Shown: one piece after another, positions 9,565-29,942 of the stretch
Layout: every line of letters starts with the position of its first letter
How positions within the stretch are numbered: the stretch's first letter is position 1
Origin: a virus
Taxonomy: Duplodnaviria; Caudoviricetes
Direction: 5' to 3' (one strand)
DNA: 29,942 nucleotides
Virus record (IMG/VR): IMGVR_UViG_3300033402_000046
Coordinates: 1-29,942 of that record
Program-made: the position numbers and the translations under genes
The notes under the pieces: model-generated
What the model was told of the DNA's origin: nothing
The model's database searches: none
What the model saw: the letters and a program-made list of their open reading frames with translations, nothing else

Positions 9565-10637
9565 ATGGCATTTGTTGAATCGGCATTAACGTGGGTTGAC
9601 ACAGGGGCAGTTGCGTATCCAGCGTTGCACCAGAAAATTATAGAGCTTACAATGCCAGCACTCGTCGTCAAAAAGCTGTTTCCAGAGTTCCCGCTGGTTC
9701 AAGGCAGAACCGCAACGTTTGTGAAGCAAAACGGCAGCAGAGCAGCAGCAATCAGCCAAATCTCTGAGGGAGCTGAAAGTGTTAATCGATTAAAAACATC
9801 AGCATATCCCGATGGATTTTACGCCGTATACAGAATTTACTGTGACACCGTACAAGAAAGGCTTACGCGAACGCATATCACGTGAAAACATTGAAGACCT
9901 CTACATTCCGATAATTGAGGACCAACTTCGACGTGTAGCCCGAAGAATGGCTTTCACTATAGATAGCGATTGCATGACCGTTATTAATAATGCAGCAGGA
10001 AACAGTTTCGCAGGCACGGGCGCAAGCTTGGGCTCAACAGGCACCCCATTCACTATCGCAAATACGCTTGGCAGCAAAGACATCTTAGCAGCTAAAGCAC
10101 TGTTGGAACAAGTAAGCTTAATCGCTGACACGATACTGCTTAACCCAGTAAACGCAAGAGACGTAATGTATCTACCGCAATTTTCACTGTGGGCTCAGTA
10201 TGGCAACGAAGGCGGACAAGGCGTATCTCCCACTCAAACTGGTAAACTCGGCACGATCTTTGGCATGACAGTCTACGTTAGCATGGTTGTCCCCGCTGGA
10301 ACCGCATTTGTACTTAGCACTGGAGGTAACTTCAGCGCAGCGTATGCACCATTGGGCTTTTTCGTTAAGGTTGCAGGTTAAGGCAGCCGCGAAGTAAAAC
10401 GCCCATTGATGACTGACGTTGAAATTAAGAAAGAATTCGATTCCATAGATGTGTCGCTTACTACCCGATACGCACCTGTAATTTTCACGGGAGAATCGTA
10501 CAACTAAGGTCACGAACTGTTTGGCACCTAATGATTTGATAGTAATTAGAGTTAAAGTGACTTTGGCTTCTCACCAGAAACAGGAAGTGACGTATGGAGA
10601 AGCAATAGTAAAAGTAACGGGGTTAGCAACAAGTTAA
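9565..10637 (+). CDS. HK97-fold major capsid protein, spliced: join(9565..9777,9806..10367,10395..10480,10587..10637), 303 aa
   Basis: Exons total 912 nt in one frame; junctions read SEGAE/IPMDFTPY, GFFV/IKRPL, RYAPV/VTYGEAIVKVTGLATS*; T-rich terminator-like tract follows. Confidence 0.9.
9778..9805 (+). other. BHB-type mRNA intron 1 of MCP (28 nt)
   Basis: GGGA/TCCC exon helix, GCTG/CAGC 4-bp central helix, bulges AAA and ATA, GTGTT/AACAT intron helix. Confidence 0.9.
10368..10394 (+). other. BHB-type mRNA intron 2 of MCP (27 nt, contains in-frame TAA)
   Basis: TTTT/AAAA exon helix, TCGT/GCGA central helix, bulges TAA and AGT, GGTTGC/GCAGCC intron helix. Confidence 0.9.
10481..10586 (+). 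other. BHB-type mRNA intron 3 of MCP (106 nt)
   Basis: TACGCA/TG(A)CGTA exon helix, CCTG/CAGG central helix, bulges TAA and AAG, TTTT/GAAA intron helix then a long rod. Confidence 0.87.
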
Positions 10638-10651
10638 ACTGAAATATCGAC

Positions 10652-10678
10652 TATTCTTTTCATTTTCCATTTTTGTTT
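10652..10678 (+). terminator. Archaeal oligo-T terminator-like tract after MCP
   Basis: tattcttttt cattttccat ttttgttt just after the spliced stop at 10637. Confidence 0.55.
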
Positions 10679-10707
10679 AAAAGCAGTTCATATCAGGAAG
10701 GAAAAAA

Positions 10708-13428: not shown

Positions 13429-15788
13429 CGATAACTTTAGTTCAAGGTCCATGTACAGGACAGCTAAGTACAAGCACGTATAATACTGTGCCCGTAACTA
13501 TGACTTCTACGCCAACCAATGGAAACGTACTTATTATGATGATTTCCATTGATGCCGGCAGCTATAGTAATGTTGATGTTTCAAGCATAACTGAAACTGG
13601 TGTAACCTGGAATAAAGTTGTTAATTGCGTGTCCGCTGCTAACTCTGGGATAGAGTGCGAAATTTGGCTGGGTGTAATAGGTTCAAGTGCATCAAAAAAC
13701 GTCACAGTAAACTTGAATACTACTATTGGTCCAACAAATCAAGGTGAGCCAAACGCTTGTATTTTAGAGTTTTCAGGCGTTGCAACTACAAGCTATACCG
13801 ATAAAACAGCTACGAATACGGGCGGTACTTCAGGGTCTACAATTTCGACTGGGACAACTGCGACAACTACGATGGCGAGTGAGTTATGGATTGGGGTCTG
13901 CGGCGGAGATGGCAATACTGCTTATGAACCAGTAAATACTCCTACTAACAGTTTTACGTTAGCAACTGGTATAGGTGGACCGACTGCTTGCGAGTTTGGA
14001 GCACTTTATTATATTGCTTCTGCGGAAGGAGCGGCAAGTACTGGTGTGACTGTTGAAAGCGGCGGGGGTGGCGTTGATGATTGGGAAGGATGCATTGCCA
14101 CTTTCTTCGCGGCAGCGAGTTCAACCAACATTAACCTTTCCGATACAGGTTCGGGCTCGGATGCTGTTGCAGTAACCGCGAATGTGCCTGTTACGGATTC
14201 GGGCAGTGGATCAGACGCGATCGGCGCATTGAAGGCGTCTGTTACGCCGTCGACAGATACGGGTTCGGGTTCAGATGCGGTTGGCGTTCAGGCTCAAATT
14301 CCCGTTGTTGATGCTGGAAGTGGAGCGGATTCAATTGTTCCTCCGCAAGTAAAGGTTCCAACGTCTGATTCTGGGACAGGATCCGATAGCGTTTTAGTAG
14401 GCAGTCCCGTTCCCGTTTCCGATTCTGGAAGTGGAACTGACGCAGTTTCTGCGTTACAAGTGCAAGTTCCAATAACAGATGCGGGAAGCGGATCAGATGT
14501 GATTAGTGCATTACGGACGCAGATTCCAGTTACGGATATTGGAGTTGGAACGGACAGCGCATTAGTCGGCAATCCCGTTGATATCTCTGACAGCGGTTCA
14601 GGTTCAGACGCTTTGGCATCAGTTAATGTTCAAGTTCCTGTAAGTGATGCTGGTTTTGGTTTTGATAGTTTGCTTGCCTATTCTTTGGCAGGAGCGCTTG
14701 TTGGATATTGGGCTTTTGAGGAAGGCTTGGGATCAACAGTTCACGATATGAGTGGAAACGGAAACAATGGCACTTTGGAAGGTTCACCTTTGCCAAGTTG
14801 GGTGGCTGGACGATTTCAATATGCGTTGCAATTTACGGCTGCAAACAGCCAATACGTATCGCTTGGCTCGCAAAACAACTTTCCATCTGGCGCAAGCGCA
14901 AGAACGGTGAGTGCTTGGGTATATTTAGCTTCGTATCCCTCGAGTAATGACGAAGGCGTTTTTGCATATGGGGCAGATGTAGCAGACGAATTTTTCTCAC
15001 TGTCAATTAGCCCGTCGGGATACATTTACCTTAACGTAGTCGGCTCAAACAACACGTTCTTCACTTCATTGACGGTTCCGTTTAACGAGTGGGTCTTCAT
15101 AGCAGTAGTCTACGACGGCACTACGAATGTGACTGGCTATGTCGCAACGCCATCGGGGATACAGTCACAAGCATTAACGATCGGAAGTGCGTTATCAACA
15201 ACTATTAGTGGCAGCAATGCTAACATTGGACTTAACCAAAACACAGGAACGTATTTTACTGGAGTCATTAGCGAAGTACGTTTATACAACGCCGCGTTAT
15301 CAGCAGCTCAGGTTTCAGCGTTGTATAATCTAAGTCCGCTTTCTATAACTGCTCAAATTCCATTAAGCGATTCAGGTTCAGGAGCTGATAGCGCGGTAGT
15401 TGGTAGCCCCGTGAACGTTTCTGATAGCGGTTCAGGTTCAGATGTTTTAACATCAATTAACGCTCAGGTTCCTGTAGCTGATGTTGGCTTAGGCACGGAT
15501 GCTTTATCCTCACTGCAGGCTCAAGTGCCTTTAACAGATTCAGGTTCAGGAGCTGACTTTGTAGGAAGTTTACAGGTTAAGATTCCTTTATCTGAACCTG
15601 TAGAAGGCTCTGATTCGCTCATAATCGCGTTTCCAATTTCCCTTTCAGATTCAGTTGTAGGCACTGACACCATTATTTTGGTTGCTGCGCGGCTTGCTAC
15701 TCACGCGATCATAGTTCAGAGTGAGAAGGGCACGGTTACGCTTCAGACTGAAAAAGGTCAAGTTATGCTTCAAAGTGATTCAGATTAA
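13425..15788 (+). CDS. Fibre/adhesin-like virion protein with DxGxGxD repeats and a LamG (ConA-like) domain
   Basis: About 16 repeats of 17-21 aa; LVGYWAFEEG...TVSAWVY...WVFIAVVYDG...FTGVISEVRLYNAALSAAQV is LamG-like. Confidence 0.85.
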   Translation: MTITLVQGPCTGQLSTSTYNTVPVTMTSTPTNGNVLIMMISIDAGSYSNVDVSSITETGVTWNKVVNCVSAANSGIECEIWLGVIGSSASKNVTVNLNTTIGPTNQGEPNACILEFSGVATTSYTDKTATNTGGTSGSTISTGTTATTTMASELWIGVCGGDGNTAYEPVNTPTNSFTLATGIGGPTACEFGALYYIASAEGAASTGVTVESGGGGVDDWEGCIATFFAAASSTNINLSDTGSGSDAVAVTANVPVTDSGSGSDAIGALKASVTPSTDTGSGSDAVGVQAQIPVVDAGSGADSIVPPQVKVPTSDSGTGSDSVLVGSPVPVSDSGSGTDAVSALQVQVPITDAGSGSDVISALRTQIPVTDIGVGTDSALVGNPVDISDSGSGSDALASVNVQVPVSDAGFGFDSLLAYSLAGALVGYWAFEEGLGSTVHDMSGNGNNGTLEGSPLPSWVAGRFQYALQFTAANSQYVSLGSQNNFPSGASARTVSAWVYLASYPSSNDEGVFAYGADVADEFFSLSISPSGYIYLNVVGSNNTFFTSLTVPFNEWVFIAVVYDGTTNVTGYVATPSGIQSQALTIGSALSTTISGSNANIGLNQNTGTYFTGVISEVRLYNAALSAAQVSALYNLSPLSITAQIPLSDSGSGADSAVVGSPVNVSDSGSGSDVLTSINAQVPVADVGLGTDALSSLQAQVPLTDSGSGADFVGSLQVKIPLSEPVEGSDSLIIAFPISLSDSVVGTDTIILVAARLATHAIIVQSEKGTVTLQTEKGQVMLQSDSD

Positions 15789-18306: not shown

Positions 18307-18969
18307 ATGGCGACAACGACTCCTATTCTAAGTCGTAATGCGGTTGTTCAGGTGGCAGGGACCGCTATTGGTTTCTTGACAGATTTTACTCTGGATTCTA
18401 AGGCTGAGTTGATTAAGGAGTATGCTAATACGACTGGTGTGACGGCTTTGGCTACGGCGACGTTGACTTCTCAGGCTGTTTCGTCTATTACTGTTTCGCT
18501 TGGGGGTCTTGGTTACACTACGGCTCCCGCGGTTACTATTTCGGGTGGTGGCGGATCTGGTGCTACGGCTACGGCGGTTATAGCCAGCGGCGTAGTGGTT
18601 GCAGTTAACGTTACTGCAGGCGGAAGCGGTTATACGTCTACGCCTTCGGTCAGCATTGCAGCGCCGTCTTCTCCTATAGCGCCGTCAGCTCAGCCAAGCT
18701 TTATTGCCAGCGGCAACCAAAGCATCACATTCAAAGCTTCAGCGCTTTATGTGCCAGCAAACTACGCAGCATTATTAAATGATGTGCTTAACGGTACGCT
18801 TGTCACAATTATTTGGGGTCCGCAGGGTACTACGACAGGGCAGAATTACCCGAAAATAACCTTAAGCAATGTTGTTTTGACTGCGTATAGTGTGAAGAAT
18901 GGTCAGAAGGTCACTATAGCCAACGATATCAGCGGCGAAGCACAGACAATATCAACAGGCACATTCTGA
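18307..18969 (+). CDS. Tail tube protein 2, paralog with about 83-aa Gly-rich insertion
   Basis: Near-identical N- and C-termini to tube 1; insertion with two GG(S/L)GYT..P.V.I repeats. Confidence 0.75.
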
Positions 18970-25985: not shown

Positions 25986-28763
25986 ATGTTTGGTCAGTGG
26001 AGACTACGCAAAATGAGAAAAGAAAAATCTGACTTAACTCGTATCCGAAAGAAACTATCAGAACGCAGGGTTAATGGTGAATGCCGAATCGCGAGAAGGC
26101 GCGACGAGTTTTTCCGTATCAGGCGGTTCCGCAGAGTCTATGACAGGAATGCGGGCAAGTTCGCGTTTAACATTAGTTACGAGACGCATACTAAGCTGAC
26201 TCCGAGGAGCCTTGTTGTGGCTGAAGCGTTTGGCTTAGGCATTGACGAGGCACAGAAGTTTAAGGTTCTTGATGCCGAACTCAAAATCGGATCTCGAGAT
26301 ATTGTTTATATCACTGGTGATTCCCTCACAGGACAGTCAAGTATGTACTGGAAAAAAGATGGGCATCTAAAGTATGGAAATATGAAGGATTTATACGAGG
26401 ATTTTTACGCAAATCAAGCAAAATCCTCGTTTGAAATTCTGAGCTCCATCGACAAAAAGATAAAGGGATCAAGAATTTCATGGCAAAAAGTGTCAGATGT
26501 CAAACGCCAGGGTATAAAAGCAGTGTACGAGATTACGGTTTCCAGTGCTAAGAGTGTTGAGGTTACTAAAGATCACTCGCTCTTCTATTCCGAAGGATAT
26601 CAATTTTATCCTATAGACCTTTCAAGATTAAACACCGATAAAAGACTGGTTTGTTCTGCAAAACTCGACTTTTTTGAAGGGGAAGAAAAAAACGTAGAAG
26701 ATTACTTACTTGTACTTGGCGGGCTATGGATTGCTGATGGATCTTATTACAAGACAAGTATTCAAATTTCAACCGGAAATAATGAAAGCATATTATCGTT
26801 TCTTCAGGCTATACCAAGGTTTGTCACAAAAACAGAACGAATAGCGAGATTTATCATGTCTAATCCTACGCTTGGCAACAAGGAGGTAAGTAGGAAAATT
26901 GGTGAGAGCCTACTTGATGTTCGAAATGCACGCCATTTGTTGCCACGTTATGCTATTAGATCAAACAGAATCCATATTTCCATCAAGAAAAGCGGAGATG
27001 CCAGCGTTTTTAACAAGGGTCTTAAAGAGAAACTAGTTGAGCTAGGTTTTCAAGGAAACTGTTACACAAAAAGAGTCCCAAGTTGGCTATTTACTGCAAG
27101 TAAAAGACAAATTGGCCTATTTTTGAAAGGATACTTTTCGGGAGACGGAAGTTTTCATACAAAGGGAAAAGATCGAGTCATTGTAGAGGCTGCATCAGTT
27201 AATGGAAACCTCTTGAAGGATATTCAAACTCTTTTGGAAAGAATCGGTATTCAAGGTTGTATTAACACCGGAATGCACAAACAGAAAACCGGCTTCACAA
27301 CTGCACACCGTAAAATTAAGATTGCAATTGAGCGAAGGACGTGTATTGAAAAATTTCTAGCAGATATTGGATTCATTTATCCAATAAAGAAAGAGCTAAT
27401 TTTTATCCTTAAAAAAGAAAAGTCCGTAACTTTAAACCAATTAATGACACGAACGGTTAAAGAAATTAAATACATCGGTGACAAAGAAGTCTTTGATATT
27501 TGTGTTCCTAACTCTCAATGTTTCATCGCAAACGGAATACTATGCCACAATAGTGGTAGCGGAAAGAGCGTTTTGCTACGAGCAATTAAGGCAGATTTGG
27601 GTGACGAAGCCATCGACTTGTCAGAGGTTGCAGTAGACCCGGATAAGCCTTTAATTGAAACGGTCGGCGACACAGTTGAAGAAGGCTTAGAGTTGCTAAG
27701 TAAGGTTGGTTTGAACGATGCTTTTCTTTTCCTACGTACATACAGCCAACTAAGCGACGGTCAGAAGTACCGTTACAGAATCGCCAAGCTGATCGAGAGT
27801 GGGAAGCAGTGGTGGCTGATGGACGAGTTCGCTGCATGCTTAGATAGGGATACAGCTAAGATTATTGCGTTTAACTTGCAGAAAATCGCGCGTCAACAGG
27901 GCAAAGCCGTAATGGCAGCTACTACACATGGAGACTTGTTTGAGGACTTAAATCCCAGTGTGCTTGTTCATAAGCGGTTTGGGGAAGAAATCCAAATCAA
28001 CTATTATCCAAACAGACTAGCCTCTGAGTGTAGCCTAATTCGTGAGATGAAGGTTGAAGAGGGAAACAAGGAAGATTGGCATAGACTTAGCGGTTTCCAT
28101 TATCGAGGGCACAATGTTGCAGTTCCCCGAAAAATCTTCCGACTATTAAGAAATGGAGAGCTCTGTGGCGTTATAGTTTATAGTTATCCTCCGCCAAGCT
28201 GCTATGGAAGACGTCTAGTGCTTCCACGCATGACAATCCGAGAAATAAACAAACAACTAAGCATTATTAGCCGAGTCGTTATCCATCCAAAATACCGAAC
28301 AGTCGGCTTAGGCGCCAAACTAATCCATGAAACCCTTCCTCTAGTAGGCACGCCTTATATTGAGATGATTGCAGTCATGGCGAAATATAACCCGTTTGCA
28401 GAAAAGGCAGGAATGCAAAAAATAGCTGAACAACAAAAGGTTGAAAGCGTTTCGGAGGTCTCTACAGTGCTCTTAGAGTTGGGTTTTGACTCGCAACTCT
28501 TAGGCAGTGAACGCTATGTCAAGGGAAGACTAGAGAGCTTGAGCTCGGAACAAATAGATGAGCTTAAAGCTGCATTCATAAGGAATAAACATCCGCGGTT
28601 CAAGAAGGAGTTTGCCATAAGTCGACATCAACCATTTGGCAAAACATCGGACTACGTTGCCTGCATTAAGAGTGCGGATCATGTGAAAATGGCAAAGCTA
28701 GTCAAGCTTGCTGGAATGCTTCTTCAAACTAAAGTTTATCTGTTTTGGCAGGCTCAAAATTAA
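25986..28763 (+). CDS. ABC-type ATPase fused to GNAT-like acetyltransferase, intein-containing
   Basis: Walker A GD[intein]SGSGKS, signature LSDGQKYR, Walker B WLMDEF, ATTH; GNAT ISRVVIHPKYRTVGLGAKLI. Confidence 0.88.
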   Translation: MFGQWRLRKMRKEKSDLTRIRKKLSERRVNGECRIARRRDEFFRIRRFRRVYDRNAGKFAFNISYETHTKLTPRSLVVAEAFGLGIDEAQKFKVLDAELKIGSRDIVYITGDSLTGQSSMYWKKDGHLKYGNMKDLYEDFYANQAKSSFEILSSIDKKIKGSRISWQKVSDVKRQGIKAVYEITVSSAKSVEVTKDHSLFYSEGYQFYPIDLSRLNTDKRLVCSAKLDFFEGEEKNVEDYLLVLGGLWIADGSYYKTSIQISTGNNESILSFLQAIPRFVTKTERIARFIMSNPTLGNKEVSRKIGESLLDVRNARHLLPRYAIRSNRIHISIKKSGDASVFNKGLKEKLVELGFQGNCYTKRVPSWLFTASKRQIGLFLKGYFSGDGSFHTKGKDRVIVEAASVNGNLLKDIQTLLERIGIQGCINTGMHKQKTGFTTAHRKIKIAIERRTCIEKFLADIGFIYPIKKELIFILKKEKSVTLNQLMTRTVKEIKYIGDKEVFDICVPNSQCFIANGILCHNSGSGKSVLLRAIKADLGDEAIDLSEVAVDPDKPLIETVGDTVEEGLELLSKVGLNDAFLFLRTYSQLSDGQKYRYRIAKLIESGKQWWLMDEFAACLDRDTAKIIAFNLQKIARQQGKAVMAATTHGDLFEDLNPSVLVHKRFGEEIQINYYPNRLASECSLIREMKVEEGNKEDWHRLSGFHYRGHNVAVPRKIFRLLRNGELCGVIVYSYPPPSCYGRRLVLPRMTIREINKQLSIISRVVIHPKYRTVGLGAKLIHETLPLVGTPYIEMIAVMAKYNPFAEKAGMQKIAEQQKVESVSEVSTVLLELGFDSQLLGSERYVKGRLESLSSEQIDELKAAFIRNKHPRFKKEFAISRHQPFGKTSDYVACIKSADHVKMAKLVKLAGMLLQTKVYLFWQAQN
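26322..27551 (+). mobile_element. Intein (410 aa) with LAGLIDADG homing endonuclease
   Basis: Starts SLTGQS, block B VTKDHSL, LGGLWIADGS and FLKGYFSGDGS, ends VFDICV...FIANGILCHN followed by Ser. Confidence 0.95.
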
Positions 28764-29513: not shown

Positions 29514-29591
29514 GGGCCCGTGGCTCAGTCAGGCTAGAGCGGCGGACTCTTAAACCGTAGGTCGCGGGTTCAATTCCCGTCGGGCTTGCCA
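29514..29591 (+). tRNA. tRNA-Lys(CTT), intronless, CCA encoded
   Basis: Cloverleaf: acceptor GGGCCCG/CGGGCTT, D arm GCTC/GAGC, anticodon CTT at 29549-29551, T arm GCGGG-TTCAATT-CCCGT. Confidence 0.88.
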
Positions 29592-29611
29592 GTTTTGTGC
29601 TGACTGCTCGA

Positions 29612-29942
29612 TTAATGCAGTGCCAAACTTGCTGTCAAAACAATGAGTACAAAAAGCGTTATCAACACGTAATTGCGGTTTTTTTCCCACGCAAAGTAGA
29701 CGACGGAAGAAATTGCTCGGATGTAGGGGGTCAAAATCAGTATTATTAGCCCCAGCGTCATAAACGTGATGGCGTTCTGCGACACGAATAGGTGTTGAAT
29801 CTGGTCAAAAATGAAGGCGAAAAAGTTCTGTCCGCTAATAAACACAGTTTTACTTTGGGAAATCTGCACGTTACCGTATGTTCGGTAAAAGAGGCTTATT
29901 CCAATAATTTCCAGCAGTACGCTGATGACGACGCCTATTATT
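29612..29942 (-). CDS. DUF1634-like membrane protein (5' end outside the window), host
   Basis: LGLIILILTPYIRAISSVVYFAWEKNRNYVLITLFVL; frame stays open to the window edge. Confidence 0.7.
   Translation of the reverse strand, partial: IIGVVISVLLEIIGISLFYRTYGNVQISQSKTVFISGQNFFAFIFDQIQHLFVSQNAITFMTLGLIILILTPYIRAISSVVYFAWEKNRNYVLITLFVLIVLTASLALH

Follow-up and report, generated by a model that had tools for sequence, protein, structure and literature searches.

The 28 nucleotides at positions 9778–9805 of the plus strand interrupt the major capsid protein (MCP) gene of this virus and, judging from the sequence and its relatives, are very probably a bulge-helix-bulge mRNA intron that would be spliced by the EndA and RtcB enzymes of the host. 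The insert and the frame break that it causes are directly observed; the insert and the frame restored by its removal are a real feature, and the interpretation given in the original prediction is supported.

The window, which is the whole stretch of DNA analysed here, corresponds to the entire virus record of 29,942 nt and carries a head-tail block with terminase, portal, cement-like, capsid, connector, and tape-measure-like genes. ORF 9812–10381 matches Pfam Phage_capsid_4 and five PHROG major-head families, and the capsid-family profile presents weak matches to four solved capsid/head proteins (E 1e-5 to 1e-3); the interrupted gene is thus an MCP gene. The predicted structure of an intact capsid homologue was set aside, its mean pLDDT being 46.7. 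Since 21 of the 22 loci of relatives found in species-level genomes come from genomes titled Bathyarchaeia or Bathyarchaeota (the remaining one is a bacterial bin), the host of the window virus would be a Bathyarchaeia archaeon. EndA and RtcB genes are observed in all five tested genomes that hold relatives, the window's own host being a presumed one. A promoter scan with models of bacterial promoters revealed nothing above chance in the window, whose host is presumably archaeal.

Exon 1 of the MCP gene (9565–9777, plus strand, as for all parts of the gene) comprises 71 codons and matches residues 1–71 of the homologues. The 5′ arm of the exon-exon helix, GGGA (9768–9771), pairs with TCCC (9807–9810); the exon strand of the 4-bp central helix, GCTG (9772–9775), pairs with the intron strand CAGC (9800–9803), which in relatives reads CACT or CAAC and matches their own exon codons. 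The predicted cuts fall within the 5′ bulge AAA (9776–9778) and the 3′ bulge ATA (9804–9806), at 9777/9778 and 9805/9806, respectively. Inside, the hairpin at 9779–9799 joins GTGTT (9779–9783) to AACAT (9795–9799) around an 11-nt loop; its first pair is G-U, and it contains a palindrome at 9782–9793. Exon 2 (9806–10367) opens with the 3′ arm. A base-by-base check found all the coordinates originally given for helices, bulges, palindrome, and insert to be correct, and deletion of 9778–9805 joins the ORF starting at 9565 in frame to the one starting at 9812, as had been proposed. Since A stands at both 9778 and 9806, the junction can slide on DNA alone by one base with the same product; the junction 9778–9805 was chosen because the bulge geometry selects it.

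The fold had been described as canonical, and its two 3-nt bulges around a 4-bp helix do stand, but in the window allele this register nearly ties with a slipped one. A9776 and U9799 form a pair in the minimum-energy fold, which gives a 5-bp central helix, and the canonical 4-bp register lies 0.5 kcal/mol higher, with a probability of 0.15 for the pair G9779-U9799. The potential for pairing is seen in the outer and central helices, whose pairs have probabilities of 0.96–0.99 in contexts of 51–181 nt; the whole fold presented z values of -1.75 and -2.30. For the relatives L024 and L038, energy minimisation gives the canonical register itself.

Strict motifs of equal quality occur three times on the plus strand of the window and never on the minus strand, against 3.4 ± 2.0 expected from 30 dinucleotide shuffles, and motif strength alone, being at chance level, was rejected as proof of an intron. 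The strict motifs at 10669–10707 and 14074–14103 lie at no homology break and were taken as chance. The case for the intron rests on the position of the motif, not on the motif itself. When the insert letters were shuffled at the fixed break, a central helix with four of four Watson-Crick pairs arose in 1.2e-3 of 400,000 shuffles; with the exons fixed, this helix together with the 5-bp inner helix arose in 1.8e-5 of 400,000. The palindrome is real but incidental: the window has ten 12-mer palindromes, with 7.4 expected, 0.8% of the shuffled inserts contain one, and the one locus with it among the 307 surveyed below is L134, a sequence that does not differ from the window and was counted together with it. 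Its role as a functional part was rejected on these grounds.

The junction is defined by homology. A protein search with the capsid sequence found 237 relatives, 120 of them among the matches listed. The homologue P0001, which shares 96% identity with exon 2, continues uninterrupted across the junction, and the EGxE motif is unbroken in 78 of the 82 full-length homologues. The homologues, which might have called for another junction, are continuous through this same one. In addition, a structure-blind profile-to-DNA alignment, with inserts allowed anywhere, placed one insert at exactly 9778–9805. Contigs assembled from reads were also compared. One contig of run X7 (a single contig, depth 3.4) lacks exactly 28 letters at 9778, and the loose end of one X8 contig runs on as an empty allele; contigs of runs X1 and X2, which may share the window's source, span the insert without differences. 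In a second set of read contigs, none bridging intron 1 was found. For intron 3, described below, a join is seen in one X12 contig, with a short side of only 20 letters.

Capsid-gene inserts were surveyed across the family by seven scans, which yielded 307 loci; two of the scans kept the best 80 of 150 and the best 80 of 166. Because best-match lists favour uninterrupted genes, the insert frequencies are likely underestimates. After 12 loci without the gene were dropped, the capsid gene was present in 296 sequences, the window among them, and 156 distinct genes were left. Site 1, between codons 71 and 72, is filled in 5 of 155 distinct genes (the two scans limited to their best 80 being among the sources), by 28 nt in the window, 29 nt in L024, L028, and L038, and 643 nt in L032. 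Empty and covarying alleles are both observed. The central helices of the occupied alleles read GCTG/CAGC, AGTG/CACT, and GTTG/CAAC, with two of the four pairs changed on both sides; the exon (5′) strand varies with the amino acid (Ala, Ser, or Val), and the intron strand tracks it. The 4-bp exon-exon helix is present in all five occupied alleles and in 2 of 150 empty ones. A quick tree built from 146 full-length proteins, excluding partial genes and the frameshifted L060, requires three changes to explain the occupied alleles; the starred branches enforce this number (three clades), and site 1 holds only three independent lineages. The spliced protein of L032 scored 100% identical to that of the empty L034. 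A pattern scan for extra short site 1 alleles returned 15 loci, of which 12 were unrelated to the capsid gene and dropped, and three were already known.

Over the whole family, 29 of the 33 distinct frame-breaking inserts passed the motif test, against 0.47 expected from shuffles; among 23 open in-frame inserts, a single one passed, an allele of site 2. The four failures are two alignment patches in the frameshifted L060 and two relaxed forms (L290 and L294). The expected hallmark of archaeal introns, structure kept over sequence, is found both in these inserts and in the three types of central helix at site 1. The 31 passing inserts occupy eight sites, 19 of them site 2, range from 17 to 784 nt, and span all three phases (12, 8, and 11 inserts). 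Because G-U pairs occur in central helices (at three of the eight sites), pairing of the plus-strand RNA is indicated. Of 150 distinct genes, 21 carry an insert at site 2 (25–663 nt), and of 148, two carry one at site 3 (106 and 784 nt). Seven further capsid intron sites were located in relatives, with 17–47 nt, at L196 4550–4579, L294 3253–3283, L291 3320–3341, L071 798–821, L038 2424–2440, L290 3748–3775, and L138 3243–3289, so that the family has about ten sites.

Two of these sites are also occupied in the window. Intron 2 (10368–10394, 27 nt), of the bulge-helix-bulge type and with an in-frame stop, is an insert found by the aligner whose ends were refined by the motif; intron 3 (10481–10586, 106 nt), identified by aligner and motif, has bulge-helix-bulge ends, a long hairpin, and stops in frame. 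They delimit exon 3 (10395–10480) and exon 4 (10587–10637), which includes the stop codon. Removal of all three inserts gives a product of 303 aa with a normal end, while the product predicted from the unspliced RNA is truncated at 106 aa; translation starting at 9812 would lose the first 74 residues and would still stop at intron 2. In relation to L043, exons 1 to 4 present 13/2, 64/23, 11/0, and 5/2 synonymous/non-synonymous codon differences, and the divergence of all four is mainly synonymous against L001, L002, and L043. Because of this, the parts behind each break are regarded as still selected as protein, and all four exons are under purifying selection. Intron 3 and the 784-nt allele of L135 gave only a gappy local alignment. 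Many database homologues end at the second intron site.

The remaining genes of the window were also compared. In 13 of them (8 to 255 loci each), no convincing motif-bounded insert was found, and outside the capsid gene no frame break in relation to relatives was seen in the covered parts of the window, coverage being thin beyond about 21,000. ORF 18307–18969, which matches virion-protein PHROGs, has in relation to some relatives an in-frame extra stretch of about 81–86 aa (18424–18690), which looks like a domain and not an intron. The 925-aa ORF at 25986–28763 encodes an ABC-type ATPase-like protein with an intein (LAGLIDADG domain). The contig ends, at 29514–29941, with an intron-less tRNA-Lys(CTT) and then a DUF1634 gene, which is possibly the edge of a provirus. 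In the relative L053, the terminase gene is interrupted (about 2290–2930) by an insert of 638 nt that includes an HNH nuclease gene containing a stop, and no good bulge-helix-bulge ends were found for this insert.

Other explanations of the broken frame were weighed against these data. Recoding could join the ORFs without splicing, by a +1 frameshift at the A-run 9792–9796 or by ribosome hopping, and frame 2 is in fact open from 9794, where the five-A run lies. However, the alleles of 28, 29, and 643 nt at site 1 demand different shifts and the family spans all three phases; two further stop-containing inserts lie downstream; no matching landing codon lies ahead of 9806; and recoding predicts neither a covarying central helix nor an exon-exon helix. 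It is very improbable. The capsid gene could also be dead, in a defective provirus with insertions, for which the tRNA-Lys and DUF1634 gene at the contig end would make a suitable edge. This is equally hard to credit, since strongly synonymous divergence is kept in the exons after each break, the other structural genes have no frame breaks in relation to relatives, and random insertions would not produce the motif in nearly all frame-breaking inserts at about ten sites common to the family.

Exact removal of a tiny element from the DNA, with the empty alleles as products of this excision, would account for the existence of empty DNA alleles and for an insert that is a hairpin holding a palindrome. 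Nevertheless, because many synonymous differences flank the junction, the empty alleles are other lineages and not excision products; runs X1 and X2 contain the intron-bearing form only, the G-U pairs and 3-nt bulges suit RNA, and target duplication is absent beyond one A, which leaves excision extremely improbable. An assembly or sequencing artefact might be suspected because all records seen with exactly this allele (L134, X1, and X2) have the same sequence as the window and may share its source. Yet contigs span the insert without differences, and the presence of other inserts at the identical base in four further genes, from three clades, largely refutes an artefact, whose probability is negligible. 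A group I or II self-splicing intron was rejected, given the 28 nt against a ribozyme core of some hundreds of bases, and an Rfam search of the window returned only a tRNA.

We therefore retain the bulge-helix-bulge intron. The features of the archaeal type are found together: bulges around a 4-bp helix, a correct product of the cuts, compensatory changes, and EndA and RtcB in the hosts of relatives. Following what is described of archaeal splicing in the accessible text of PMC2738675 and PMC4496867, the gene would be transcribed, the capsid transcript would fold into the motif, the host EndA would cut after the second base of each bulge, that is, after 9777 and after 9805, and RtcB would ligate the exons. 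All three introns would have to leave the mRNA for the 303-aa capsid protein to be made, and the virus thus likely needs the tRNA-splicing enzymes of its host to make its shell.

The long alleles of the family encode proteins. The 643-nt intron of L032 has an ORF in frame with exon 1 and containing three NUMOD3 stretches; its C-terminal part has an RPDI-centred motif in common with the ORFs of the long site 2 alleles L009, L031, and L140, which present zinc-finger-like N-termini and weak Hjc matches. In a fold search with the L032 protein model (pLDDT 61, medium confidence), no match at E≤0.001 was found, and the top matches were Hjc resolvases (best E 0.04, non-significant). These weak fold matches and the shared RPDI motif suggest that the long-allele protein is likely a PD-(D/E)XK-type nuclease. 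The long site 3 allele of L135 encodes a DUF559-like protein. LAGLIDADG was not found among the long-allele proteins, whose matches are NUMOD3, weak Hjc, and DUF559. The intron ORFs of L031 (3596–4075), L140 (1112–1708), and L135 (2649–3376) have no internal stop, and the next exon supplies it; a circular intron would give these ORFs another tail, and the L031 circle stays open for 337 aa.

Mismatches between occupied and empty alleles crowd near the sites. Between L032 and its empty sister L034, 11 of 28 mismatches lie within 30 nt of the site, against 1.2 expected; the corresponding counts are 16 of 26 for L135 and 14 of 48 for L004, against close empty sisters. The window and the X7 contig differ at 14 places, 13 of which are among those listed, and 9 of the 14 lie this close to the site. 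Of the 38 site comparisons, just 5 gave a co-conversion excess at p<0.001; for most, a close empty relative was lacking. The excess near the site is partly due to selection on the exon helix. The crowding, clear for L032, L135, L004, and the window versus X7, has the pattern that homing with co-conversion would leave. Compared with mobile rRNA-type introns, the patchy distribution with co-converted flanks is present; the 28-nt intron, on the other hand, is too short for its own nuclease gene, which at site 1 only L032 has, and the host gene is a capsid gene, not an rRNA gene with a LAGLIDADG nuclease.

Granted that 9778–9805 is an intron, we lean towards regarding it as a homing intron, of the kind seen in the L032 allele, reduced to a minimum; no clear shared sequence with that allele was found beyond the motif. 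Most likely, it would derive from a homing intron minus its nuclease; otherwise, it would be a hairpin carried along by co-conversion. The nuclease gene would be dispensable over time and the splice signal would not, because the capsid gene is essential and the signal cannot be lost from it.

Introns in the cbf5 pre-mRNA of Crenarchaeota were reportedly described by Watanabe in 2002. According to the available part of Yokobori 2009 (PMC2738675), the cbf5 introns have 16–44 nt, too short to encode nucleases, and are cut by EndA between the second and third bulge bases. The window's intron resembles them as a short bulge-helix-bulge intron inside a coding sequence, and the 17-nt intron of a relative is about as short as the shortest of them; in contrast to cbf5 as described there, the gene is viral, with three introns, about ten sites in the family, a mostly strict motif, and long nuclease-coding alleles. 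In the Thermoproteales 16S rRNA genes, as far as the accessible text of PMC4496867 describes them, long nuclease-coding, remnant, and short hairpin alleles occur at fixed loci, with a splice motif and co-conversion, as in the capsid family; here, however, the target is a viral mRNA, and the proteins are of the NUMOD3 or zinc-finger plus PD-(D/E)XK-like type, or DUF559-like, instead of LAGLIDADG. The 5′-UTR intron of HVO_1309 in Haloferax volcanii was shown by experiment to be an mRNA substrate of EndA, which is what we predict here; in the sections available of PMC7714728, that intron is cellular, lies outside the coding sequence, and has no mobility described, and cbf5 is given as the sole other archaeal mRNA example as of 2020. 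Putative 12-bp introns in an archaeal virus, whose splicing was not demonstrated, are attributed to Peng et al. in the same available part of PMC2738675; these are also small insertions in viral coding genes, but they are in frame, whereas the inserts of the window family disrupt the reading frame and have a covarying motif. The main texts of PMC13149111 and bioRxiv 10.64898/2026.10.13.758758, in their accessible form, do not include viruses. A literature search, with subscription papers and supplements largely outside its scope, found no paper on bulge-helix-bulge introns in archaeal virus mRNA. The novelty lies in the essential viral coding sequence, the several introns per gene, and the non-LAGLIDADG proteins of the long alleles.

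Taken further, viruses of Bathyarchaeia quite probably carry mobile, protein-spliced mRNA introns that home by non-LAGLIDADG nucleases, accumulate in the capsid gene, and become reduced to hairpins of 17–30 nt. It is a speculative and rather unlikely extension that, through this family and its three introns per transcript, the tRNA-splicing capacity of the host would gate capsid output and hence the timing of virion assembly. If the intron reading is true, gene callers would be truncating such intron-bearing capsid proteins, candidate homing nucleases would be added outside LAGLIDADG, the long mobile form could explain the origin of short coding-sequence introns like those of cbf5, and mRNA splicing would be a routine and obligatory step for these viruses.
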